60,494 nucleotides of DNA from Candidatus Saccharimonadales bacterium (GTDB taxonomy: Bacteria; Patescibacteriota; Saccharimonadia; UBA4664; DATIHN01): positions 1 through 60,494 of the forward strand of contig DATIHN010000013.1 of NCBI GenBank assembly GCA_035480635.1, read 5' to 3'. The stretch's first letter is position 1. Each line of letters opens with the position of its first letter. A program made the translations under genes and the position numbers. Shown piece by piece: positions 1-57,888 of this stretch. The notes under the pieces are model-generated. The model made no database searches. It was given only the letters and a program-made list of their open reading frames with translations, and had not been told where the DNA came from.

Positions 1-2
1 GC

Positions 3-125
3 CGTGGCAGCGGGCCAGTTGATTGGGCCAAGTTCAAGCTTGATCTGCGCGACACCGTAGCCGACCTACTCTACCAAAAGACCAAGCGCAACCCGATGGT
101 GCTGCCAGTAGTGAATGAAGTTTAA
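3..125 (+). CDS. rnj: Ribonuclease J, C-terminal fragment (gene starts upstream of the window)
   Basis: Frame from nt 3 reads RGSGPVDWAKFKLDLRDTVADLLYQKTKRNPMVLPVVNEV*; the TKRxPMVLPVVxEV end is the typical RNase J C-terminus. Confidence 0.85.
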   Translation, partial: RGSGPVDWAKFKLDLRDTVADLLYQKTKRNPMVLPVVNEV

Positions 126-126
126 T
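81..126 (+). repeat. 46-bp perfect direct repeat, copy 1 (rnj 3' end)
   Basis: ACCAAGCGCAACCCGATGGTGCTGCCAGTAGTGAATGAAGTTTAAT is identical to 1316-1361. Confidence 0.97.
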
Positions 127-186
127 TAGTTTACCTCCTCGGTTTTAAGGAGTATAAGTATTTGCATAGATGGAGTTGATAAAATA

Positions 187-798
187 TTGAATTTCATTAA
201 GTCGAAACCAAAATGGCTCATTGCTTTGGTCTTCTCTTCATTGATACTTTTACCTACTGCAGCCTACGCCCTAACTAGTGCAGATTTTTACAGTGCTGCG
301 CTGAAGTGGTCACTGTCAAACTGCCAAGTATCGTCTGCAACCAACACAATAAACAATTCGGTCTGCTTCTTACTGAAGAGGAACAGTGAAATTTCTACCT
401 CATTGAAATCGGAGGAGGATAAAAACAACCAACAACAAGGAGATATAGATAACTTAGGCTCTAGGGTTTCGTCGCTTGAGTCAGTATCATCATTTGACTT
501 TCAGTTTCTAACAACTGCCGACAATTTGGCTGTATCACCAGTTTTTGACGCACAAAATTACAATTACGTGACTTTCAATTTTACGTGCTGGACTGCTGCA
601 AATGACGAAGTGCACTTAGAAGTTAGCTCTGACATGAACACATGGATAAAGCAGTATAGTGCCAATGTTTGTAATGCATCTGGTGGGCACGGATCATTTT
701 CAGGTACAACAGGAGGTAGGTATTATCGTGTTACAACTAACTCTCCCCAAAACGTTGATGCTTTAGCTAGATTTTCAAAATTTTTAGAACTGCCTTAA
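187..798 (+). CDS. Hypothetical secreted protein (signal peptide, short coiled coil, beta-rich C-terminus)
   Basis: 203-aa ORF with a hydrophobic N-terminus ending in an AYA-type site; visibly AT-richer than its neighbours. Confidence 0.7.
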   Translation: MNFIKSKPKWLIALVFSSLILLPTAAYALTSADFYSAALKWSLSNCQVSSATNTINNSVCFLLKRNSEISTSLKSEEDKNNQQQGDIDNLGSRVSSLESVSSFDFQFLTTADNLAVSPVFDAQNYNYVTFNFTCWTAANDEVHLEVSSDMNTWIKQYSANVCNASGGHGSFSGTTGGRYYRVTTNSPQNVDALARFSKFLELP

Positions 799-808
799 GT
801 TGGAGTCC

Positions 809-1273
809 ATGATCAAAGATGTAGAAAAAACGATCCGAGATTACATCGCCCAGGTGATACATGTGTCCTTGGCCACCTGTTTCAACAATCAGCCGTGGGT
901 TTGTGAGGTTCATTACGCTTACGATCAGGACTTGAACCTGTACTTTAGGTCTCTTCAATCAACTCGTCATAGCCAAGAGATAGCCCAAAATCCCAATGTC
1001 GCGGGTAACATCGTCGAGCCACACGGATTAACTGATAAACCCAGAGGAGTCTACTTTGAGGGGAAAGCTGAGCTGCTAGATGACGTCAAACCATCCGACA
1101 AAGCTGTTATAGCACTAAACGATCGATTCAATTTAGGCCAAGAGGTTCTGGACGAAGCCAGGTCCAAAGATGGCCATAAGATATATAAAATATCAGTCAG
1201 TAAATTTTACCTGTTTGACACCAGAGAATCGACACCTAGTCGAAAATATGAACTGCCCTGGGCCAAATTCTAA
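809..1273 (+). CDS. Pyridoxamine 5'-phosphate oxidase-like (FMN-binding split barrel) protein
   Basis: VSLAT...PW...Y...LYFRS...TRHSQEI..NPNVAG pattern; ATG at 809 follows GGAG. Confidence 0.8.
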   Translation: MIKDVEKTIRDYIAQVIHVSLATCFNNQPWVCEVHYAYDQDLNLYFRSLQSTRHSQEIAQNPNVAGNIVEPHGLTDKPRGVYFEGKAELLDDVKPSDKAVIALNDRFNLGQEVLDEARSKDGHKIYKISVSKFYLFDTRESTPSRKYELPWAKF

Positions 1274-1360
1274 CTGGAACTACACGATGCGGTCGCCGAT
1301 TTTATTTACGCCAAAACCAAGCGCAACCCGATGGTGCTGCCAGTAGTGAATGAAGTTTAA
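1259..1360 (+). pseudogene. Diverged second copy of the rnj 3' tail with an in-frame stop
   Basis: Reads WAKF*LELHDAVADFIYAKTKRNPMVLPVVNEV*, colinear with 24-125. Confidence 0.9.
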
Positions 1361-1361
1361 T
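1316..1361 (+). repeat. 46-bp perfect direct repeat, copy 2
   Basis: Identical to 81-126. Confidence 0.97.
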
Positions 1362-1426
1362 AGCTAATCCACCTGGCTGCATCGACAAACTTGTAAGTTT
1401 TTTCTCATCCAGCTATAAATACCTAT

Positions 1427-1969
1427 ATGAGCGAAGCCCTGCCCGGTCAACCCGAACCGGAGTTTAAACCAGCCATAAACCCTGCGGATCTATCCAGCGA
1501 CCAACCTCACCTGGAGGATGCCTTCCAAGCTATGCCGCCTGATCCAAGTATTGAGGCTCACAGGCAAGTCGAAATTGACAAAGCAGAAAGGGAGGCTAGG
1601 CGCTCAGATTTGTTGACCCAAGGCTATAACCAGGACGAGGTTAATTCAATCATTAATAGCGGCTCAGTCCTACCGGAAGTTTTTGCCAATCACGAGCCGA
1701 GTGACACCTATTTGGAACTTGCGTCTCATCAAGAGTCGCTTAATCAAAAGCCGCAACGATCTCAGTCTGAAGCCGCGCTGCAATACAATAGTCAACGTGT
1801 CCAGCTGATCAGCAGTCTCAAGCGGAGTGGCAGCTCTGACTTAAGTGATGAGCAAATTGAGCGGATTATCACATACGGTTATTTGATGCCCCCAGAATAT
1901 ACAGCTACGCCCGCTACTGACTTGCTTGCAAAGCGGCATGAGGAAGAAGACTTACCTAAAGCAGCCTAA
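1427..1969 (+). CDS. Hypothetical acidic protein
   Basis: 180-aa ORF, no recognised motif. Confidence 0.6.
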   Translation: MSEALPGQPEPEFKPAINPADLSSDQPHLEDAFQAMPPDPSIEAHRQVEIDKAEREARRSDLLTQGYNQDEVNSIINSGSVLPEVFANHEPSDTYLELASHQESLNQKPQRSQSEAALQYNSQRVQLISSLKRSGSSDLSDEQIERIITYGYLMPPEYTATPATDLLAKRHEEEDLPKAA

Positions 1970-2023
1970 CTATGACACAACCCTATACCCTAGCGACTCC
2001 GTAAGCGGTATAATCTAGGAGAT

Positions 2024-4120
2024 ATGGCCAAAAAACGCCGCACCAAGAAGAAGGATAACTCCAAGCCAAAGGAGGAACTCAGCCCGGCGATCAGCAAAGA
2101 TATCGCGGCCATAGTCTGCGTGGCGCTAGCATTGCTGCTGATTTTGGCAGCCCTGCATGTTGGGGGTACCCTGGTAAGCTCGGTCTTTACTGGGCTGCGA
2201 TTAGTGCTAGGGTATGCGGCTTACTTGTTGCCAGTGGTATTGGGGCTATTAGCCTGGTTGCTGTTTCAACCCGAGAAGTATGAGGTTGGTGGTATGAATT
2301 ATGCTGGGCTGATTGGTTTTATGTTAGCATTGGCCGGCTTGCTGCATTTCAGCTCGGCTACCGAAAACGCTTTGAGTCTGGCCAAGGCGGGGCAGGGTGG
2401 AGGCATGAGCGGATATGCTATAAGCCGCGGGTTGCTTGGTATCGTCAACGTGCCAGCCGCGGTAGTTATTTTATTAACTGTCATGGCGATCTGCTTGGTT
2501 ATGGCCGCTAACGCCCGCTTAAGCGACATTTATCACGGTTTAATCGGCTTGTTTCGGCGTGGTCCGAAAGAGGAAATCCAGATTAACGAGCCAGCCGGTT
2601 TGAATATCAACAACCGATTGCCAATCCGAGGCCAACTTGACGCCAGCCGGCGGGGTAAGGATGAGATGGAGGCTCTGACTGTCATGGCCGATGCTGATTG
2701 GGTCTCACCGGAGCTAGACCTGTTAGCTAGCACCACCAGCAAACCCAATGCCGGTAACGTCAAAGAAAACGCTGCCATTATTCAAAAAACCCTCGATAGT
2801 TTTGGCATCGAAGTGGCCATGGGCGAGGTCAACGTTGGACCGACCGTGACTCAGTACACACTGAAGCCCTCCAGCGGCGTCAAGCTGAACAAAATCACCG
2901 GGTTGGATCACAACCTATCGCTGGCGCTGGCGGCCCATCCTCTGCGCATTGAGGCGCCTATTCCGGGTAAAAGTGCTGTCGGCGTCGAAGTGCCAAACAA
3001 AGCCGCGGCCATCGTTTCGCTCAAAGACATCCTAGCAACCGAGGAAATTCAAAAAAGTACGCGCATGACCTTCGCTCTAGGCCGCGACGTCTCTGGTCGC
3101 CCGGCGCTGGCCGATCTATCCAACATGCCGCACCTGCTGATCGCTGGCGCCACCGGGACTGGTAAAAGCGTCATGATTAACTCGTTGCTAACGACGCTGC
3201 TGTATCGTAATTCGCCATCGGATCTCAAGTTGATTTTAGTTGATCCTAAACGAGTCGAATTAACGCCTTTCAATGGCATTCCGCATTTGCTCGCACCGGT
3301 TATTACAGAGGATGATCAAACCATTTCGGCGCTCAAATGGGCGGTGGCCGAAATGCAGCGGCGCTATAAAATGCTTAACGACGCCGGTAAGCGCAACATC
3401 GTTGAATATAATTCAGCCAAACCGCCAGAGCGGATGCCCTATATCGTGATTGTAATTGATGAGATGGCCCAACTCATGCAATCGGCCGGCCGCGACGCTG
3501 AGGCCTTGATAGTTCAGCTAGCCCAACTGGCCCGGGCCACCGGCATCCACCTGGTCCTGGCCACCCAGCGACCAAGTGTTAACGTTATTACCGGTTTGAT
3601 CAAGGCCAACATTCCAGCCCGAGTGGCCTTCACCGTGGCATCGCAAATTGATTCTCGGACCATCCTTGATCAATCGGGGGCCGAAAAGCTCTTGGGTAAA
3701 GGTGATATGCTCTTCATCAGCCCAGATTTAATTAAGCCTATCAGAGTCCAGGGCGCCCTGATTCAGACCAAAGAGGTCAACGCCGTAAATGGCTATCTGC
3801 GGTCTCAGCGCGAACCTCAATACAACGAGGAAGTCACCAGCCAACCAGTTAAATTGGGGACCAGTGGCCGGGGCTCTCACTTTGAGGAGACCGGCGATGA
3901 CGACCTATTCGAGCAGGCCGCCGAGACCGTTATTCGCAGCGGCAAGGCCTCGGCCTCGCTGTTGCAGCGGCGCCTGCGGGTTGGCTACGCCCGAGCCGCT
4001 CGTTTACTCGATTTATTGGAAGAGCGGGGAGTGGTTGGTCCGCCCGACGGCGCCCGGCCGCGCGATGTGCTGGTTGATCATATCGACAATGTTGCAACCG
4101 ACATAACCTATGAAGAATGA
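2024..4120 (+). CDS. ftsK: DNA translocase FtsK/SpoIIIE
   Basis: N-terminal TM helices, Walker A GATGTGKS, VIVIDEMAQLM, HLVLATQRPS, C-terminal gamma domain (SASLLQRRLRVGYARAARL). Confidence 0.97.
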   Translation: MAKKRRTKKKDNSKPKEELSPAISKDIAAIVCVALALLLILAALHVGGTLVSSVFTGLRLVLGYAAYLLPVVLGLLAWLLFQPEKYEVGGMNYAGLIGFMLALAGLLHFSSATENALSLAKAGQGGGMSGYAISRGLLGIVNVPAAVVILLTVMAICLVMAANARLSDIYHGLIGLFRRGPKEEIQINEPAGLNINNRLPIRGQLDASRRGKDEMEALTVMADADWVSPELDLLASTTSKPNAGNVKENAAIIQKTLDSFGIEVAMGEVNVGPTVTQYTLKPSSGVKLNKITGLDHNLSLALAAHPLRIEAPIPGKSAVGVEVPNKAAAIVSLKDILATEEIQKSTRMTFALGRDVSGRPALADLSNMPHLLIAGATGTGKSVMINSLLTTLLYRNSPSDLKLILVDPKRVELTPFNGIPHLLAPVITEDDQTISALKWAVAEMQRRYKMLNDAGKRNIVEYNSAKPPERMPYIVIVIDEMAQLMQSAGRDAEALIVQLAQLARATGIHLVLATQRPSVNVITGLIKANIPARVAFTVASQIDSRTILDQSGAEKLLGKGDMLFISPDLIKPIRVQGALIQTKEVNAVNGYLRSQREPQYNEEVTSQPVKLGTSGRGSHFEETGDDDLFEQAAETVIRSGKASASLLQRRLRVGYARAARLLDLLEERGVVGPPDGARPRDVLVDHIDNVATDITYEE

Positions 4121-5075
4121 TCCCAAACTGGCCCAAAATCAGCTAATTGGACCAATCCTAAAAAAACGTCGGCAAAGCCTGAAACTTAGTTTGACGGACG
4201 TCGAACTAGCCACCAAAATCAGGGGGAAGTTTTTAATTGCGCTGGAGAATAGCGACTACGATAGCATTAGCCATGACGTCTACACCAAGGGCTTCGTCCA
4301 AAGTTACGCCGATTTTTTGGGCTTAAACGGCCGAGTCATCTCATCGCAATATTTGGTGGAGCGCGGCGACCTACCAGACGAGCGGCCCAAATCAATTCAA
4401 CCGCCGACCAAAAGCTTCGTCATCACACCACGCCTTGTTATCGTATCGGCGGCGGTCTTAATCTTGGCTGCCGTCATGGCCTACTTTGGCTGGCAGGTTT
4501 CAACGCTGGCGGCTGCCCCCAAACTAGTCGTTACTAATCCGTCGAGTGATCAAGTTATTGAAGGCAGCTTGGCTGATGTTAATGGGCATGCCACATTGGG
4601 GGCCGATGTTTTCGTTAACGATTCACCGGTGCTTACCGACACCAATGGCGCCTTTGCCGAAAAAGTTGCCCTCCAAGATGGCGTCAACACTATTCGGGTT
4701 ATGGCCAAAAACAAGCTGGGCAAAACCACCGTGGTGACCCGCAGCATTCTGGCCAAGATTCCTAAACCGCTGGGGGCTCAAACCAGCGAACCAGCCACTA
4801 TTGATGGAGTACGGGTCGATATCAGCATCAAGGCCACCGCGGCCGCTATCACGGTTCTAGTTGATGACAAGCTGGTCTTCCAGGGCACCATGCTCGCCGG
4901 TACCACCCAGACCTTTAGCGGTAATCAAAGAGTGGTTATAACCACCAGCAACGCCGGCCAAACGGCTCTAAAAGTGACCAATTCGGTGGTGGCAGCCAAA
5001 TCGATCGATCCGGTTGGCAAAGACGGCGAAATCAAACGTGATTTGGAATTTACCAAAGATACTGTGATCCCTTAA
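4110..5075 (+). CDS. RodZ-like membrane protein (XRE HTH, TM, Ig-like and DUF4115-like domains)
   Basis: IGPILKKRRQSLKLSL..VELATKIR..FLIALEN..Y....DVYTKGFVQSYADFLGL; single TM; follows ftsK. Confidence 0.85.
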   Translation: MKNDPKLAQNQLIGPILKKRRQSLKLSLTDVELATKIRGKFLIALENSDYDSISHDVYTKGFVQSYADFLGLNGRVISSQYLVERGDLPDERPKSIQPPTKSFVITPRLVIVSAAVLILAAVMAYFGWQVSTLAAAPKLVVTNPSSDQVIEGSLADVNGHATLGADVFVNDSPVLTDTNGAFAEKVALQDGVNTIRVMAKNKLGKTTVVTRSILAKIPKPLGAQTSEPATIDGVRVDISIKATAAAITVLVDDKLVFQGTMLAGTTQTFSGNQRVVITTSNAGQTALKVTNSVVAAKSIDPVGKDGEIKRDLEFTKDTVIP

Positions 5076-10765: not shown

Positions 10766-11477
10766 AGTCAGACTAGACCAACTGCTGGTCGACATCGGTC
10801 TGGCTGAATCAAAATCGAAGGCCCAGGCACTAATTATGGCTGGTCGTATCAAATTGGATGGCAATGTTGCAGCCAAAGCTGGACTGTTAGTTATGCCAGA
10901 TGGTCGCGTTGAAGTGGCAGAAGCGCCAAAGTATGTCTCAAGAGGCGGCGACAAGCTAGCTTCGGTCGCGGACGAATTGCGGTTGGAATTCGCTGGCAAA
11001 ACAGTTCTGGACGTTGGGGCCTCAACCGGCGGCTTCACCGATTTCGCCCTCCAAAATGGCGCTACCAAAGTCATCGCAGTCGACGTCGGTACTGGCCAGA
11101 TGGATTGGCGCTTGCGTCAGGACGATCGAGTTGAGATTCATGAGCAAACTGACGTCAGGGCCTTCGAGTCCGATCAAAAAGTTGATATCGCAATGATCGA
11201 TGTTTCGTTCATCTCGATCTTAAAAATCATCGATACGGTGGCCATGTGCGTGAAGCCAAATGGTCAAATTGTAGCCATGATCAAACCTCAGTTCGAGGCT
11301 GGCAAACCCCTGGCCGACAAATCTGCCGGCGTCATTAGCGATCCGAAAATGAGAGCCGAAATCATCGAGCGAGTTAAGTTAGAGCTTGGGTCAAAGTTTG
11401 ATATCGTTGCATCGGCCGATTCAGCCGTCCTTGGACCCAAAGGCAATCAAGAACATTTCGTGGTTTTAGTTGCCTGA
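10725..11477 (+). CDS. tlyA: TlyA family rRNA 2'-O-methyltransferase (true start probably slightly downstream)
   Basis: S4 domain RLDQLLV, YVSRGGDKL, LDVGASTGGFTD, VDVGTGQ, DVSFIS, IKPQFEAG, GPKGNQE. Confidence 0.95.
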   Translation: MTLGRANILSAKSKVRLDQLLVDIGLAESKSKAQALIMAGRIKLDGNVAAKAGLLVMPDGRVEVAEAPKYVSRGGDKLASVADELRLEFAGKTVLDVGASTGGFTDFALQNGATKVIAVDVGTGQMDWRLRQDDRVEIHEQTDVRAFESDQKVDIAMIDVSFISILKIIDTVAMCVKPNGQIVAMIKPQFEAGKPLADKSAGVISDPKMRAEIIERVKLELGSKFDIVASADSAVLGPKGNQEHFVVLVA

Positions 11478-11478
11478 T

Positions 11479-11769
11479 ATGAGAATGAAACAGTACTACG
11501 TTTACATTATGGCTAATGACCGCCCAACTCTATATATCGGCGTCACTAATGACCTCAAACGCAGGGTCTTTGAACATAAAGAAGCTAAAATTCCTGGTTT
11601 TACTAATCGCTACGCTCTTAAGAAATTGGTCTATTTTGAACAATGCGACTCAATAGAAACAGCAATCACGAGAGAAAAACACTTGAAGCACTGGAAAAGA
11701 GCCTGGAAACTCGAGTTGATTCAGAAAGATAACCCGGATCTTAATGACTTGTACGAAAACATTGTTTGA
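11479..11769 (+). CDS. Small GIY-YIG nuclease family protein
   Basis: YYVYIMAN....LYIGVTNDLKRRVFEHK...GFT.RY..KKLVYFE....AI.REK.LK.W.R.WK. Confidence 0.93.
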   Translation: MRMKQYYVYIMANDRPTLYIGVTNDLKRRVFEHKEAKIPGFTNRYALKKLVYFEQCDSIETAITREKHLKHWKRAWKLELIQKDNPDLNDLYENIV

Positions 11770-27691: not shown

Positions 27692-28615
27692 TTAGGCGTT
27701 TGGCTTCTTTTTGTGATGAAACTGTTCGTGAACCTCTTTGAGTCTAGGATCAGTAATATGAGTGTAGATTTGGGTGGTCGAAATATTGGCATGGCCCAGC
27801 AGCCCCTGGACGCTACGAATATCGGCCCCGTTCATCAGCAAGTCCGTCGCAAAGGAATGACGCAAGGTGTGGGGGGTGACGTCTTTGGTAATGCCAGCCA
27901 ATTTGGCGTAGCGTTTGACCAAGCGCTGGACGCTGCGGACAGTTAAGCGTTGGTACATACCAGAGCCACTGGCATCCTTGCTGCCGGAGAGGTGAATGAA
28001 CAGCGGGGCTAGATCGTCGTTACGGCTGTCCAGATAGCGCTGCAACCAATCAGCGGCTTCGGAGCTCATGAAAATCGGCCGATCCTTTTGGCCCTTGCCC
28101 CGGACGCTAAATTCCCGGCGTTCCAAATTGATCTGATCGCGGTTGAGAGAAACTAGCTCCGAGACTCTCAACCCACCCGAAAACAATAGTTCCAAAATCG
28201 CTCGATCGCGCAGACCGACAATAGAAGAAGTATCAATAACTTCAACCAGGCGGGCAACTTCCTCGGGCGTCAGAAAGGCGATTTGAGGCCGCTTAACTCT
28301 GGCTAGTTCAACCCGATCGCTGGGCAGGGTTTTGATATTCCGCTTGGCCAGGTATTTCAGAAAACTTCGTAAGGCAATCAAATGATAATTCTGAGTGGTT
28401 TTAGATATCGGCTGGCCGGAAGCATCTTGCAACCTAGCTAGCCAGAGCCGCCAAGCTCGGATGCGCTCATCATCTAATTTAGCCACATCGCAATCATCAC
28501 AAAACTCGATTAGCCGGGCCAGGTAGTGGTGGTAGTTGGCGATGGTTTTTTGGGACCGATTTTGCTCAATTTCTTGGTATTCCAAAAAGTCTGTAACTAG
28601 TTCACTAATGGGCAT
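27692..28615 (-). CDS. xerC: XerC/XerD family tyrosine recombinase
   Basis: RDRAILELLFSGGLRVSEL, VRGKGQKDR, TPHTLRHSFATDLL..GADIRSVQ.LLGHANISTTQIYTH. Confidence 0.9.
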   Translation of the reverse strand: MPISELVTDFLEYQEIEQNRSQKTIANYHHYLARLIEFCDDCDVAKLDDERIRAWRLWLARLQDASGQPISKTTQNYHLIALRSFLKYLAKRNIKTLPSDRVELARVKRPQIAFLTPEEVARLVEVIDTSSIVGLRDRAILELLFSGGLRVSELVSLNRDQINLERREFSVRGKGQKDRPIFMSSEAADWLQRYLDSRNDDLAPLFIHLSGSKDASGSGMYQRLTVRSVQRLVKRYAKLAGITKDVTPHTLRHSFATDLLMNGADIRSVQGLLGHANISTTQIYTHITDPRLKEVHEQFHHKKKPNA

Positions 28616-33318: not shown

Positions 33319-33338
33319 TTGGTACCCCGGGAGGGAAT
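33319..33338 (-). repeat. 20-bp duplicate of the tRNA-Arg 3' end
   Basis: TTGGTACCCCGGGAGGGAAT is identical to 33476-33495. Confidence 0.95.
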
Positions 33339-33475: not shown

Positions 33476-33476
33476 T

Positions 33477-33552
33477 TGGTACCCCGGGAGGGAATCGAAC
33501 CCCCGACGCCCTCCTTAGGACGGAGGCGCTCTGTCCACTGAGCTACCGGGGC
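33477..33552 (-). tRNA. tRNA-Arg(CCT)
   Basis: 76-nt cloverleaf GCCCCGG...GGGGTACCA; anticodon loop GT-CCT-AA. Confidence 0.93.
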
Positions 33553-53572: not shown

Positions 53573-54769
53573 TTAAACCTCGGCCGGGCTGCCTTGGTAG
53601 AACATCAGCCCCAGTTTGATCTGCAAGGCATCATCAAAGTGGCGGGGATCGAGATTGATCAGCTTCTTGGTTTTATCCAGCCGATAGATCAGCGTATTGC
53701 GGTGAACATGGAGCTTAGCCGCCGCCTCCGTCAGGTTTAGATTGTTGTTTAAGAACATCTGAACAGTCGAAAACAGTTGCTGGTTTTTAACCAGGGGATT
53801 GAGGATTTGATGAGCCAGTTCAGCCTTACGTTCTGCATTAACATTGGCGAGCGTCACATACATACCAACCTCTTTAATGTGATAAATCCGGCCCGGTCCC
53901 CAGACTTTTAGACCGACGCTAAGGGCTAACTGGGCATCCTGATAACTTTTGCGTAGGCCCCCAAGATCGGGATAATATTGGCCCACGCCCACAGTGATCA
54001 AAGACTTTTGATGTATTTCCGACAACGTATTAAATAAGTAGTCAGCCTTTTCCTTCAAGAAACGAATGGTATTGAGGGTATTGAGGTTTTCGCCGCCAAT
54101 CCCTTTTAACAAAATAAAGGTGTCGTTATCGGCATAGGCCACAATGTTGTCCTGATAATTCTGGAAACTGGCCTTGATGCGCTCATCGATCATCTCGGTA
54201 GCTCGCACAATTTGGAGGCGCTGCTCCTCCTGAGACAAATGTCCGGCATCCATCATCAAACGCTTTTCGAAACCTTTGAGCGAAAACAGCATGACAGCTT
54301 GGGCACTGCGCAGGGTCAGCTGCATAATGTCGGCCTGGCGGTAGATTTCTTCAGGATTAATGGTTGGGGCTTGCAGTAATTCGCGAATAAAAGTAGCTTT
54401 AACCACCTCACTAGAATGAACCCGATCAATTAAGAGATATTGATTAACGATGACCTCGGCCAAGCCTTGCAACAAACTCACGGCCTCCGGTGTAATCTGA
54501 TCACTGGCACTAGCAGTGATTCCGAAAACGCCAACCGTTTGATCCTCATAAACAAATGGGCTCCAATGAACTCTTACCAAACCATCATCGGCCGTCACGC
54601 TGTGGCCCTCTTGGCTAGCCCGGAAGGCCTCGACCGAAAAGCCGCTGGGTGTTTCACCGCCAGCCATAATCTGCCCGCTGGCGTCAGTTACAATGACGTC
54701 ACGAATCAAAATACTTTGGGCCTTGGCTCTGATTTGCTCAGCTAATTCCCGGTTAATGCGCATATTCAC
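53573..54769 (-). CDS. CdaR/PucR-family transcriptional regulator
   Basis: N-terminal sugar-diacid recognition-like domain, GGDEF-like core, C-terminal HTH LNLTEAAAKLHVHRNTLIYRL. Confidence 0.9.
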   Translation of the reverse strand: MNMRINRELAEQIRAKAQSILIRDVIVTDASGQIMAGGETPSGFSVEAFRASQEGHSVTADDGLVRVHWSPFVYEDQTVGVFGITASASDQITPEAVSLLQGLAEVIVNQYLLIDRVHSSEVVKATFIRELLQAPTINPEEIYRQADIMQLTLRSAQAVMLFSLKGFEKRLMMDAGHLSQEEQRLQIVRATEMIDERIKASFQNYQDNIVAYADNDTFILLKGIGGENLNTLNTIRFLKEKADYLFNTLSEIHQKSLITVGVGQYYPDLGGLRKSYQDAQLALSVGLKVWGPGRIYHIKEVGMYVTLANVNAERKAELAHQILNPLVKNQQLFSTVQMFLNNNLNLTEAAAKLHVHRNTLIYRLDKTKKLINLDPRHFDDALQIKLGLMFYQGSPAEV

Positions 54770-55880
54770 CCTCGATGAATTTGTTGAATAGAATGGCTAG
54801 CTTGATTTGGACGGCGTCATCGAAAACCCTTGGGTCTAGGCTCAGAGCTTCTTTGATCCGATCCAAGCGATAAACCAAGGTGTTGCGGTGTATGCCTAAA
54901 GTATCGGCGGTTTTAGTTAGACTCATATCCAGACTAAAGAAAGTTTCCAAAGTTTGAATCATCTCGGTGTTTTCGCCTAGTTTATCGAGTAATTCACGGC
55001 TGAAGTAAATATTTTGTTCATCAACGCCTGAAAGCAATGGTGCCACCACGCCGAAGTCATCGATGTGATAAACCTTGTCGCGATCCCACATTTGAGTGCC
55101 CAGCTCTAAGGCATTCAGGGCCTCTTGGTAGCTGCGCCTCAACCCTTGGGTCCCAGGGTGGTAATTACCAATGCCAATTGTAGTGGTTAGCTTCATCTCG
55201 CCCTTAATGATGCCGTAGATGATATTGATCGACTTTTTAAAATGCTCCAGATGCTCTTCCAATTGCGAATCGCCATTAACCAAATCTTTTAAGACGCAAA
55301 AATTGTTTTGGCCGAGGTAGGCCACGATGTTGTCGCGGCTGGAGGTGTAGTAGGAATTAAGGGCCCGGGCGATTCCAGAGCGATAGCGGCCAATTCGAAT
55401 TTCACGATCAGTGGAGGGGATGCGCTGGCTGGCCGTGAGCGTCGGATCTTCAATTGATATAACCAGCGCAATGCGGGGCCGATCCAAATCAATTTCAAAC
55501 AACCTAGCTTCGGCTTCGATCAAGGCCGGATCATTAGCAGTATTGAGCAGGTCATAGATAAATTTATCTAGTCGTTCCTCCTGGTGGGGGATGGTTTCAA
55601 TCAAAATCGATTGGTGCATAACTAGCTCCGCAATCGAACATATCAACGGCGCGATTTCGGCATGGTTGGGCAGTTCAGCGGCTAGTACGACGTAGCCCAC
55701 AACTTTGCCGCCGTAGCGGAATTTGATGGCCCAGGGGGCTGTGCTCAAGTGCAGCGATTCATCAACACTCGGGTTGTTGCTCGACAGAACAGTACCGTCC
55801 GGATCGACCACGCTCAATGGCTGGTTAACCAGACTGGCCACCTTCAGCTGAATTTTTTCAGCAATCTGACGAGTCAGCAT
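54753..55880 (-). CDS. CdaR/PucR-family transcriptional regulator (paralog)
   Basis: MLTRQIAEKI, IGIGNYHPG..GLRRSYQEA, LTKTADTLGIHRNTLVYRL; ATG 55880 after AAGGA. Confidence 0.9.
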   Translation of the reverse strand: MLTRQIAEKIQLKVASLVNQPLSVVDPDGTVLSSNNPSVDESLHLSTAPWAIKFRYGGKVVGYVVLAAELPNHAEIAPLICSIAELVMHQSILIETIPHQEERLDKFIYDLLNTANDPALIEAEARLFEIDLDRPRIALVISIEDPTLTASQRIPSTDREIRIGRYRSGIARALNSYYTSSRDNIVAYLGQNNFCVLKDLVNGDSQLEEHLEHFKKSINIIYGIIKGEMKLTTTIGIGNYHPGTQGLRRSYQEALNALELGTQMWDRDKVYHIDDFGVVAPLLSGVDEQNIYFSRELLDKLGENTEMIQTLETFFSLDMSLTKTADTLGIHRNTLVYRLDRIKEALSLDPRVFDDAVQIKLAILFNKFIEGEYAH

Positions 55881-55994
55881 AGTTTCCTTACACCTCATTT
55901 GGAACTTCGACTAACTTAAGCCTATCTTTATGCCGCTAGCGCTGCAAGCCTGAGGGCAATGCAAAGGCCGGGATGGTGTCCATCCCGGCCTATT

Positions 55995-57495: not shown

Positions 57496-57572
57496 GGGCT
57501 CTTAGCTCAGTTGGCTAGAGCGCTTCCTTGACGTGGAAGAGGTCACAGGTTCGAGTCCTGTAGGGCCCACCA
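57496..57572 (+). tRNA. tRNA-Val(GAC)
   Basis: GGGCTCT...CTTCC-TTGACGT-GGAAG...AGGGCCCACCA. Confidence 0.96.
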
Positions 57573-57674
57573 GCTCGTTTTGGGCTTCAGCTTGCATTCG
57601 GCATTGCCTAACTCCAGCTTGTGCCCAAAGCCTCGCTATCCGAAGTTCAAACGCTGCGCTGGTTTAAACTTCGG
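57573..57674 (+). repeat. Structured tRNA-trailer element, copy 1
   Basis: Homologous to 57785-57888; starts immediately after CCA. Confidence 0.85.
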
Positions 57675-57707
57675 TATATTCATATTAATTCGGTATGACC
57701 GCTGCGC

Positions 57708-57784
<77 letters not shown>

Positions 57785-57888
57785 ACTCGTTTTGCGCTTC
57801 AATTTGCGCTTTTTTTGTAAAAAAGCTCCAATTTACGCCCAAAGCCTCGCTTTCCGCAGCTCAAACGCTGCGCTGGTTTAAGCTGCGG
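57785..57888 (+). repeat. Structured tRNA-trailer element, copy 2
   Basis: Homologous to 57573-57674, with compensatory changes. Confidence 0.85.

Follow-up and report, generated by a model that had tools for sequence, protein, structure and literature searches.

Between rnj and ftsK, an uncultivated Candidatus Saccharimonadales bacterium from soil carries two genes bracketed by a duplicated and partly diverged 3´ end of rnj. We directly observe this repeat, a microhomology joint at its distal copy, a sister arrangement in the same soil, two boundaries that coincide, and no recombinase nearby. The pattern probably reflects events of the homology-facilitated illegitimate recombination (HFIR) type at a variable rnj-ftsK islet: an illegitimate join mediated by microhomology, and homologous exchange among diverged lineages. 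As no integrase or IS is found nearby, a combination of homologous and illegitimate recombination is the best mechanism. We infer the order and number of the events, the direction of transfer and the route of uptake. The repeat is real, and the process is a known and fairly ordinary one.

The window is the entire 60,494-nt MAG contig, which starts inside rnj. The soil data comprised four runs (of a study including SRR9179559-62) in the form of Logan unitigs with k=31. Two arrangements occur in this one soil population, the window form (W) and a sister haplotype (S). The repeat in the window has the following parts:

3–125, plus strand: 3´ end of rnj (RNase J), the last 40 codons and stop; Pfam RNase_J_C, E=1.3e-7; matches the C-terminus of RNase J P0001 (650 aa) without a difference.
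24–80, plus strand: diverged part of tail A (A-div), the functional rnj copy; 37/57 to 1259–1315; identical to S.
81–126, plus strand: block R, copy 1, comprising the last 14 rnj codons, the stop and 1 nt; 46/46 to 1316–1361; differs from S at 92, 119 and 125.
1259–1315, plus strand: diverged part of tail B (B-div), relic of a second rnj allele; 65% to A-div, with third-position bias.
1316–1361, plus strand: block R, copy 2; 46/46; one unitig (X4 record 28) runs through 1102–1696 without a difference.

Nucleotides 24–126 recur at 1259–1361, colinear and free of gaps, and 83 of the 103 aligned positions are identical. All 20 mismatches lie in the first 57 positions, and the identity of the remaining 46 stops 1 nt past the rnj stop on both sides. 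The alignment confirms the repeat as the earlier note had described it, including the lack of indels and the translations (WAKFKLDLRDTVADLLYQKTKRNPMVLPVVNEV* versus WAKF*LELHDAVADFIYAKTKRNPMVLPVVNEV*, asterisks marking stops). The 60-kb window has only two families of direct repeats of at least 25 nt, this being one of them, and the repeat is not a product of chance. No second protein-gene end is duplicated within the window; the scan of tails returned only pilin N-termini and one pair of paralogues.

The mismatches are biased towards the third codon position, as had been noted: 13 fall at position 3, 5 at position 1 and 2 at position 2 (chi-square p=0.008), and the codons of the diverged part are divided into 5 identical, 7 synonymous and 7 non-synonymous. 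This distribution bears on whether the rnj tail was simply duplicated in tandem in one lineage, with neutral decay of the distal copy while gene conversion or a function of the block preserved the 46 nt. Such a history would suit a colinear, indel-free repeat in which the relic has a stop codon and an R-to-H change at an invariant position. It would leave the changes evenly distributed among codon positions and from one end of the repeat to the other, which is not what we find. In addition to the third-position bias, 7 codon changes among 12 conserved residues are synonymous, and the contrast between 20/57 and 0/46 changes (Fisher p=1.4e-6) is incompatible with uniform decay. Relic residues such as ADF.YAK, although different from those of tail A, are found in real rnj tails. 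Neither a structure nor a signal was detected in the block itself; a promoter and terminator scan of 1–2200 gave nothing above shuffled expectation and no structure accounting for the conservation of the block. Given the codon-position pattern, tandem duplication is largely refuted, and we consider it extremely improbable.

The proposal that the tails are alleles of different lineages holds up, on the synonymous bias, a divergence at the level of orthologues and the conserved residues kept by tail B. Tail A matches its closest orthologues (L009–L011, L030) at 31–44/57 and more distant ones at 21–30/57, compared with 37/57 for tail B. At third positions the tails diverge by 0.68 (n=19), which is the same order as for the islet genes between haplotypes (0.40–0.53). 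Tail B keeps the orthologue consensus W.KF.L.L.D.VADF.YAK, its odd changes being the K to stop and the invariant R to H. The 46-nt identity is not simple conservation, because rnj orthologues share only 27–37/46 with the block and other rnj alleles from the same soil have 5–9 differences over about 45 of its positions.

In the search for a live rnj with tail B, the back-translated tail B pattern gave 2 matches in GTDB genomes (35–36/57 to B-div) and 4 in JGI metagenomes, the best of which (42/57) is equally near tail A. At 80% likeness in the four soil runs, many other rnj alleles match the conserved block only, and a protein-word search returned 10 RNase J proteins, none B-like at the DNA level. 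A live rnj with tail B was absent from the GTDB representative genomes, the JGI metagenomes and the four soil runs. The postulated parental arrangements rnj-ORF203-PNPOx and rnj(B)-ORF1427 were likewise not observed; S and the window form were the only ones seen.

The genes and joints of the islet are:

187–798, plus strand: ORF203, a small protein with a hydrophobic N-terminus; only in the window haplotype.
809–1273, plus strand: PNPOx-like (YhbP-like) gene; Pfam PNPOx_N, 3.9e-8; NCBIfam YhbP below cut-off; last codons AKF and stop from the rnj-tail relic.
1259–1267, plus strand: illegitimate joint, microhomology TGGGCCAAA, common to the native PNPOx end (TGGGCAAAA-TAG in S) and the rnj tail (TGGGCCAAG).
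1271–1273, plus strand: TAA stop replacing a Lys codon of rnj tails; K in all orthologues; one substitution from AAA.
1362–1426, plus strand: spacer before ORF1427; 1362–1389 absent from S, 1390–1426 aligning to the S spacer at 81%.
1427–1969, plus strand: ORF1427, an orphan islet gene whose only homologue is ORF1427' of S (58% aa).
1977–2023, plus strand: right edge of the variable islet; 28/28 to L044 1115–1142; joint 1143 to 1977 in X2 and X3; follows PNPOx' in S.
2024–4120, plus strand: ftsK, the conserved right-hand neighbour; rnj to ftsK synteny across Saccharimonadales.

To judge from its sequence, the ORF203 product is probably secreted or membrane-anchored. The gene has a GC content of 38–42%, versus about 52% in the flanks, and no match in Pfam, NCBIfam, PHROG or PADLOC. 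A word-based search recovered only ORF203 itself; exhaustive HMMER searching recovered 35 distant proteins, most of about 200 aa and the best 42% identical, and this best homologue (P0012) lies in an unrelated gene context. Relatives of PNPOx elsewhere (L001–L007) adjoin neither rnj nor ftsK. ORF1427 has no family match in the same four collections and is missing from the rnj-ftsK loci of all relatives. The ATGA at 1972–1975, just after ORF1427, has the appearance of the start codon of a deleted PNPOx and is too short to serve as evidence.

The joint at the distal copy can be placed by comparison with S. PNPOx' of S ends CCC TGG GCA AAA TAG (...PWAK*), and seven other homologues end in ...W plus 1–6 aa. 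When S PNPOx', the joint in the window and tail A are compared with one another, TGGGCNAAR, 8–9 nt, is seen both at the native 3´ end of PNPOx and in the rnj tail (DWAKF). Since the native end of PNPOx is ...PWAK*, the joint to the relic tail falls inside this motif, a short microhomology between unrelated sequences and within the HFIR range of about 3–10 bp. The in-frame fusion to PNPOx claimed in the earlier note is thus correct as a join, but W-A-K is native to PNPOx too and the crossover lies within the microhomology. Likewise, the TAA does sit at a Lys codon, but it is a single change from AAA and not necessarily two from AAG. It trims the fused PNPOx to ...WAKF*, compared with the native ...WAK*.

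No integrase or IS was found in 127–1258 or within 26 kb downstream, in agreement with what had been noted; the sole tyrosine recombinase of the 60-kb window is Xer-like and 26 kb off (27692–28615). In Pfam, NCBIfam, PHROG and PADLOC, none of the insert genes shows a signature of phage, defence, integrase or IS, and the insert has no transposase, inverted repeats or short target-site duplication. Another way to bracket an insert would be a site-specific integrative element (prophage or genomic island) that entered the rnj 3´ end with a replacement tail, its integrase and most of its genes being deleted later. The 46-nt identical "core" at both ends of low-GC DNA would fit this, although it is also a product of homologous recombination, and a 20-nt perfect duplication of a tRNA-Arg 3´ end in the window resembles an old att remnant. 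However, the unit and its surroundings lack integrase, phage and ICE genes, and there is no PHROG or PADLOC match. Instead of an att arm, the right end is a microhomology join in the PNPOx coding end; in S, PNPOx belongs to the resident genes of the islet; and the distal rnj homology reaches 57 nt upstream of the "core", which is not required of att sites. We therefore regard such a remnant as improbable.

Among genes for recombination and uptake, the window encodes recA, recX, and a type IV pilus operon with pilB, pilT, pilC and a prepilin peptidase. Cultured Saccharibacteria are naturally transformable and integrate DNA via homologous recombination (PMC10633639). [quoted passage not shown] (2002) and Meier and Wackernagel (2003), here as summarised in PMC6382021. 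Its microhomologies measure 3–10 bp; RecA has a minimal efficient processing segment (MEPS) of 25–35 bp (PMC6382021).

Sister haplotype S, from the same soil runs, has the order rnj, 44-nt spacer, ORF1427', PNPOx', ftsK upstream sequence and ftsK. The arrangement asked for in the earlier note, rnj directly followed by a 1427-type ORF, therefore exists, in a co-occurring haplotype. S and the window do not differ over 1–91 or over about 1.7 kb of upstream rnj, and a 1746-nt rnj unitig is common to S and W in a run holding both forms. Over 92–125 there are 3 differences (S has T92, G119 and G125), after which the S contig joins 124 to 1390 with 8 nt between. ORF1427 of S and W is 63% identical in a codon-wise nucleotide alignment and 71% in a gapped one; PNPOx and PNPOx' share 81% of amino acids and 78% of nucleotides. 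Identity resumes at 1977 (about 1977–2002), the islet genes between being 63–78% identical. Near-identical flanks around a strongly diverged islet fit exchange by flanking homology.

Two boundaries meet in the conserved block. Tails A and B switch from diverged to identical at 80|81, and identity of S with W ends at 91|92; both points lie in the same 11-nt interval, and their coincidence points to one homologous-exchange endpoint there. The sharp change from 65% to 100% identity is best explained by a separate allelic exchange that would have ended in this block. Everything to the right of 92 is non-S, and the switch between the two lineages (alpha for S, beta for the other) is therefore independent of the insert. 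The order relic tail, block R, spacer and ORF1427 parallels that of live tail, spacer and ORF1427' in S. Because the relic is colinear with ORF1427, as the live tail is in S, tail B is most simply the old in-situ tail and not, as had been suggested, one carried in with the cargo. Nor is PNPOx foreign cargo, as had also been suggested: it is an islet resident, since the islet of S also contains PNPOx, 81% identical and located after ORF1427'.

A mosaic of this kind could also arise if the contig switched between co-occurring strains at the repeat, such that no single cell contained the mosaic, or had rnj linked to the cargo. Haplotype switching is possible in MAG contigs. The window opens at a strain-variation branch in rnj, exactly 91 nt ahead of the first S/W difference. 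Full-length rnj and S-type ORF1427' each have a longest contig of 3824 nt, probably one and the same and possibly of the same bin, and Logan contig L008 joins W-type ORF1427 to another ftsK 5´ allele than that of the window. The unitigs break at block R copy 1, which is what a repeat exceeding k=31 would cause, and do not phase the 46-nt repeat; the linkage from A-div through R to ORF203 rests on the MAG contig. Against this, an assembler k above 48 phases such a repeat, and the pieces are independently present in four runs. A-div is joined to C92 in a 1776-nt and a 49-nt unitig, 97–1345 is one unitig, and PNPOx, tail B, R, spacer and ORF1427 follow one another in one 595-nt unitig. Tail B occurs solely behind PNPOx and ORF203 solely behind R. 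An artefact of assembly or haplotype is accordingly a reading to which we give little credence.

With HFIR-type recombination as the preferred reading, the history could run as follows. In lineage beta, two islet versions, rnj-ORF203-PNPOx and rnj-ORF1427, would have become stacked through a homologous join in rnj and an illegitimate one in the 8–9-nt chance microhomology TGGGCNAAR (PNPOx ...PWAK* and rnj ...DWAKF...). The old rnj tail, which stood before ORF1427, would have remained as a 103-nt relic fused to PNPOx, and a single AAA-to-TAA change would then have restored a near-native PNPOx length. A later homologous exchange with the diverged, co-occurring lineage alpha (S) may have replaced rnj up to a crossover at 81–91, which would be the start of the sole long identical stretch. 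This exchange would produce the 65%/100% mosaic, with a live tail of alpha type to 80 and beta type thereafter and a relic of beta type throughout. No dedicated recombinase would be needed; HFIR or unequal RecA recombination may have sufficed, the DNA probably arriving via natural competence. Such a history takes at least three events, and other orders give the same end state. To the left of the insert, rnj is 100% identical to S up to 91; the parental arrangements that would point to the anchor of the original stacking event were not found. Two other routes were considered and rejected: one-step HFIR from an S-like donor, the window PNPOx being just 78% identical to S, and a Campbell model with an S-like recipient, the right-hand block not being S-type.

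Another possibility is that the 1235-bp unit of R, ORF203, PNPOx and tail B behaves as a RecA-dependent mini-cassette. The unit would have been circularised at TGGGCNAAR in a donor, would have entered the 46-nt block of a recipient by a single Campbell-type crossover, and could pop out and re-insert in related cells. The direct repeats bound the unit exactly, their identity ending at the same point past the rnj stop, and the k=31 de Bruijn graph fits a circle plus an empty site equally well. However, an S-like recipient with a crossover at 81–91 predicts an S-type right-hand R (T92, G119, G125), which is not so; all sequence right of 92, spacer and ORF1427 included, is non-S. The k=31 unitigs do not separate a circular or second-site copy from the integrated form, and none is demonstrable; the unit is absent from 12/12 of the relatives' rnj-ftsK loci examined. 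We think this origin unlikely. That the 46-nt block serves an enzyme-free cassette system as its working part, with RecA excision of a 1.2-kb circle, uptake and re-insertion behind rnj in relatives sharing the block, is very improbable. If true, it would mean integrase-free trading of small genes at the ends of essential genes.

The site is variable well beyond this soil. In 12 Saccharimonadales loci with rnj to ftsK synteny, the gap between the two genes ranges from 69 nt to 3.2 kb and contains unrelated genes, so that conserved flanking genes enclose variable content, as in a flexible islet. No duplicated rnj tail was found in these 12 loci. Of the integrase-free, homology-anchored capture put forward in the earlier note, homologous plus illegitimate recombination stands as the best mechanism, whereas the site is a generally variable islet and not one of unique capture; as a whole, that interpretation is partly supported.

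The rnj scar alone changes no concept; what it contributes is a documented case in which a sister haplotype is available from the same soil. It would be a readable natural case of a mobile-element-poor, ultra-small and probably naturally competent bacterium gaining and rearranging genes by host recombination alone, and it would combine one joint at a chance 8–9-nt match, a second joint in a conserved gene, "tidying" by point mutation, and overprinting by exchange between diverged lineages. Such scars may be a common pattern in Saccharibacteria. A note of caution is that cargo between duplicated gene ends need not signify insertion of foreign genes. For users of MAGs, the lesson is a bin that probably contains two haplotypes of one locus.

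Several known systems leave similar traces. The elements e14 and phage 21 integrate into E. coli icd, where the displaced icd 3´ end stays as a pseudogene. As at rnj, a duplicated and diverged 3´ end of an essential gene brackets the insert, the gene remains intact and the differences are mostly synonymous. Integration at icd depends on an integrase and involves a prophage and a defined att core, whereas the rnj locus has no integrase or phage gene and its distal microhomology join lies inside another gene. At rhs, cdi and T6SS effector loci, the conserved upstream part of the gene lets a new 3´ end recombine in, and the old end is displaced downstream as an "orphan". The rnj relic is likewise an old gene end pushed downstream, but orphan modules are functional toxin/immunity modules in arrays and the relic consists of 33 housekeeping codons without a function of their own. 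In Neisseria, clean replacement via both flanks defines the minimal mobile elements (MMEs). With MMEs and flexible islets the rnj-ftsK islet shares a short variable region between syntenic core genes, strain-specific genes, identical core flanks and the lack of a dedicated recombinase; it differs from MMEs in an extra illegitimate joint that stacks two versions and in the gene-end relic left behind. In mechanism the scar resembles HFIR, with one presumed homologous anchor (rnj) and one illegitimate joint, of 8–9 nt here versus 3–10 bp in experiments. Both proceed without recombinase, IS or target-site duplication, and the host here possesses recA and, of the competence machinery, the pilus genes. 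Unlike in the experiments, the process is read from a natural scar. The rnj/PNPOx joint differs further in lying within coding sequence, where it appears to have made a working chimeric gene end, and in a second homologous exchange that would have overprinted the live copy.

The duplication of the 3´ end of rnj, the RNase J gene, is confirmed, and its earlier interpretation is partly supported. Relatives of PNPOx and FtsK assign the window to soil Candidatus Saccharimonadales (Saccharibacteria/TM7). It appears to be one complete contig of 60,494 nt, begins inside rnj and contains:

24-126, live 3´ end of rnj (tail A)
187-798, ORF203
809-1273, PNPOx-like ORF (Pfam PNPOx_N; YhbP-like), ending in the second tail copy
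1259-1361, second, relic copy of the rnj end (tail B)
1427-1969, ORF1427
downstream, ftsK, a RodZ-like gene, DUF5680, yajQ, recA, recX and a type IV pilus operon
27692-28615, Xer-type tyrosine recombinase (307 aa), 26 kb from the repeat

The two tails match colinearly at 83/103 positions without indels. Their last 46 nt (block R, 81-126 and 1316-1361) are identical and the preceding 57 nt agree at 37 positions, as the earlier note had counted; the bias it reported towards third codon positions also holds, the 20 differences being distributed 13/5/2 over codon positions 3/1/2 (chi-square p=0.008). Of the codons compared, seven carry synonymous and seven non-synonymous changes, and five are unchanged. 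Mismatches are highly non-uniform along the repeat (20/57 in the first part vs 0/46 in block R; Fisher p=1.4e-6). This heterogeneity and the codon-position pattern contradict a tandem duplication followed by neutral decay, which is extremely improbable. Tail A is the RNase J end (Pfam RNase_J_C), identical to the C-terminus of a 650-aa RNase J (P0001). Orthologous rnj tails share only 27–37 of the 46 positions of block R, and other rnj alleles from the same soil differ from it at 5–9 of ~45 positions, so ordinary conservation does not account for the 46-nt identity. The relic keeps a genuine rnj-tail consensus, except for the stop and an R-to-H change in the invariant LRD motif, and its residues ADF.YAK, unlike tail A, are found in other rnj orthologues.

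The insert is GC-poor (38-45% vs ~52% in core genes). Neither ORF203 nor ORF1427 falls in a Pfam, NCBIfam, PHROG or PADLOC family, and the ORF203 family is thin, with 35 distant matches (best 42% identical), most of ~200 aa with hydrophobic N-termini. The order rnj-ftsK is kept across Saccharimonadales with gaps of varying content and size: 69 and 90 nt in two loci (L010, L011), 0.3-1 kb in six (L013, L018, L019, L021, L022, L030) and 1.7-3.2 kb in others. In the closest relative (L009, FtsK 79% aa), the gap (1480-4610) is occupied by three genes, all on the minus strand, whose products are secreted proteins with dockerin-like repeats, a pair of them also having right-handed beta-helix-like regions, a content entirely different from that of the window at the same site. 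No second rnj tail was found in the relatives' rnj-ftsK loci examined, and neither ORF203, PNPOx nor ORF1427 inside their gaps. The rnj-ftsK site is thus a variable islet. The records of L004 (DATLCF010000002.1) and L018/L019 say Nevskiaceae or Gammaproteobacteria, whereas their FtsK/RNase J or PNPOx are Saccharibacteria-like; these contigs may be mis-binned or mislabelled.

Four soil metagenome runs, all from one study, contain the window sequence, and a sister haplotype, S, co-occurs with it. The only ORF1427 homologue found (P0047, 58% aa) led to a Logan contig, L044, in which the rnj tail is followed by a 44-nt spacer, ORF1427´ (179 aa), PNPOx´ (153 aa) and ACAACCCTATACCCTAGCGACTCCGT, the last being window 1977-2002, immediately upstream of ftsK. 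The order in S is therefore rnj-ORF1427´-PNPOx´-ftsK, as against rnj-ORF203-PNPOx-relic tail-ORF1427-ftsK in the window haplotype (W). The arrangement of rnj followed by a 1427-type ORF that the earlier note had sought as an empty site thus exists in S. PNPOx itself is not imported cargo, as had been proposed, but a resident of the islet, the S copy being 81% identical in amino acids and 78% in nucleotides. Full-length rnj (P0001) and the S-type ORF1427´ (P0047) each have a longest contig of 3824 nt, probably the same one. This contig may come from the bin of the window, which probably holds two haplotypes of the locus.

Logan contigs from the four runs stop within the 46-nt block, as expected at k=31. 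The pieces agree with the window: a 1776-nt rnj unitig enters block R with C at 92, and single unitigs cover 97-1345 and 1102-1696. A 558-nt contig connects window 1-124, with differences at positions 92 and 119, to 1390-1511 across 8 intervening bases; this continuation, GGAGCAGGCTTGTAAG..., is seen in three of the four runs. An assembly or haplotype artefact might be suspected, given that a repeat of 46 nt is too long to be phased with k=31 unitigs and that the window contig starts at a strain branch, but several runs contain each junction piece independently, and tail B is never seen other than behind PNPOx; we consider it very unlikely.

The joint between PNPOx and the relic can be read from S, where PNPOx´ ends in ...KYELPWAK* (CCC TGG GCA AAA TAG); seven more distant homologues likewise end in ...W plus 1–6 residues. 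The rnj tail has GAT TGG GCC AAG TTC AAG at the matching site and the window CCC TGG GCC AAA TTC TAA. Comparison of the three places the switch inside TGGGCNAAR (8–9 nt). The in-frame fusion reported earlier stands, with a different explanation: a crossover within microhomology native to the PNPOx end. The TAA that cuts off the fused ORF also stands. It lies two codons past the joint, at a site where every rnj tail seen has Lys, and shortens the chimeric protein to ...WAKF*, as against the native ...WAK*. A single substitution in AAA would give it, so that two changes from AAG are not required. A decayed integrase-driven element would leave the joint inside the PNPOx coding end unexplained and comes without any integrase or phage gene; the Xer-type ORF is the only recombinase-like ORF in the window. 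Such an origin is very improbable.

Other features were noted in the window. A stand-alone GIY-YIG nuclease-domain gene (99 aa, 11470-11769) lies amid core genes, and two neighbouring paralogues (398 and 381 aa; 53573-55898, minus strand) have C-terminal ends ~60% identical. The 3´ end of tRNA-Arg(CCT) (33477-33552, minus strand) is duplicated as a perfect 20-nt direct repeat (33319-33338 and 33476-33495, 157 nt apart), which looks like an old attachment-site remnant around a short non-coding stretch. Tandem tRNA-Val genes (GAC and CAC, 57496-57888) are each followed by one copy of a 63-nt stretch. The copies, spaced 214 nt, are 86% identical; tRNA and hairpin-like sequence downstream of it have been duplicated together in tandem.

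S equals W throughout 1-91 and differs thereafter by C92T, A119G and A125G, followed by a 28-nt non-alignable stretch; ORF1427 is 63% identical in a codon-wise and 71% in a gapped nucleotide alignment, and identity returns from 1977. In run X2, where both forms occur, one 1746-nt rnj unitig stops at 91 with a depth near the sum of the two. The tail A/tail B boundary (80|81) and that between S and W (91|92) thus enclose a single interval of 11 nt common to all three sequences. Most simply, they mark a single homologous-exchange endpoint, with the live tail to its left the allele common to S (lineage alpha) and to its right that of the lineage in which the W islet evolved (beta), hence equal to the relic. 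The endpoint lies at the start of the only long stretch of identity between such diverged alleles near the rnj end (11 nt, one mismatch, 26 nt). RecA has a minimal efficient processing segment of ~25-35 bp (PMC6382021). Third-position divergence is of the same order between the tails (13/19) and between S and W islet genes (0.40-0.53), which fits tail B being the former rnj end of beta itself.

Most likely, then, islet versions rnj-ORF203-PNPOx and rnj-ORF1427 would have been stacked in beta by two joins, the first homologous and the second illegitimate (at microhomology), through homology-facilitated illegitimate recombination (HFIR) or an equivalent unequal exchange, leaving a 103-nt repeat that would have been perfect at that time. 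An AAA-to-TAA change would then have shortened PNPOx, and an exchange with alpha would have replaced rnj up to 81-91; equivalently, the beta islet may have moved into an alpha background. We infer this three-step order. Campbell-type insertion of a cassette into an S-like recipient should leave a right-hand block of S type, and the block is not of that type. Insertion from beta to beta is compatible with the data, and the Campbell-type reading as a whole is unlikely. The window encodes recA and pilus machinery, and Saccharibacteria are naturally transformable, integrating DNA via homologous recombination (PMC10633639). The 5´ part of ftsK (2122-2353) occurs in the soil runs as two alleles ~9% different, mainly at third codon positions, and a Logan contig (L008) joins window-type ORF1427 to the allele other than that of the window. 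The two alleles are linked differently to the W islet, reflecting either further shuffling of haplotypes within the population or a switch of haplotype in the MAG contig.

The stacking proposed here shares with HFIR scars a microhomology joint and the lack of a recombinase, with rnj as the putative homologous anchor, and the anatomy of the window is like that of recombinase-free islets exchanged via conserved flanks. The likeness to e14 and phage 21 at icd, where displacement of a gene 3´ end is integrase-driven, is only superficial.
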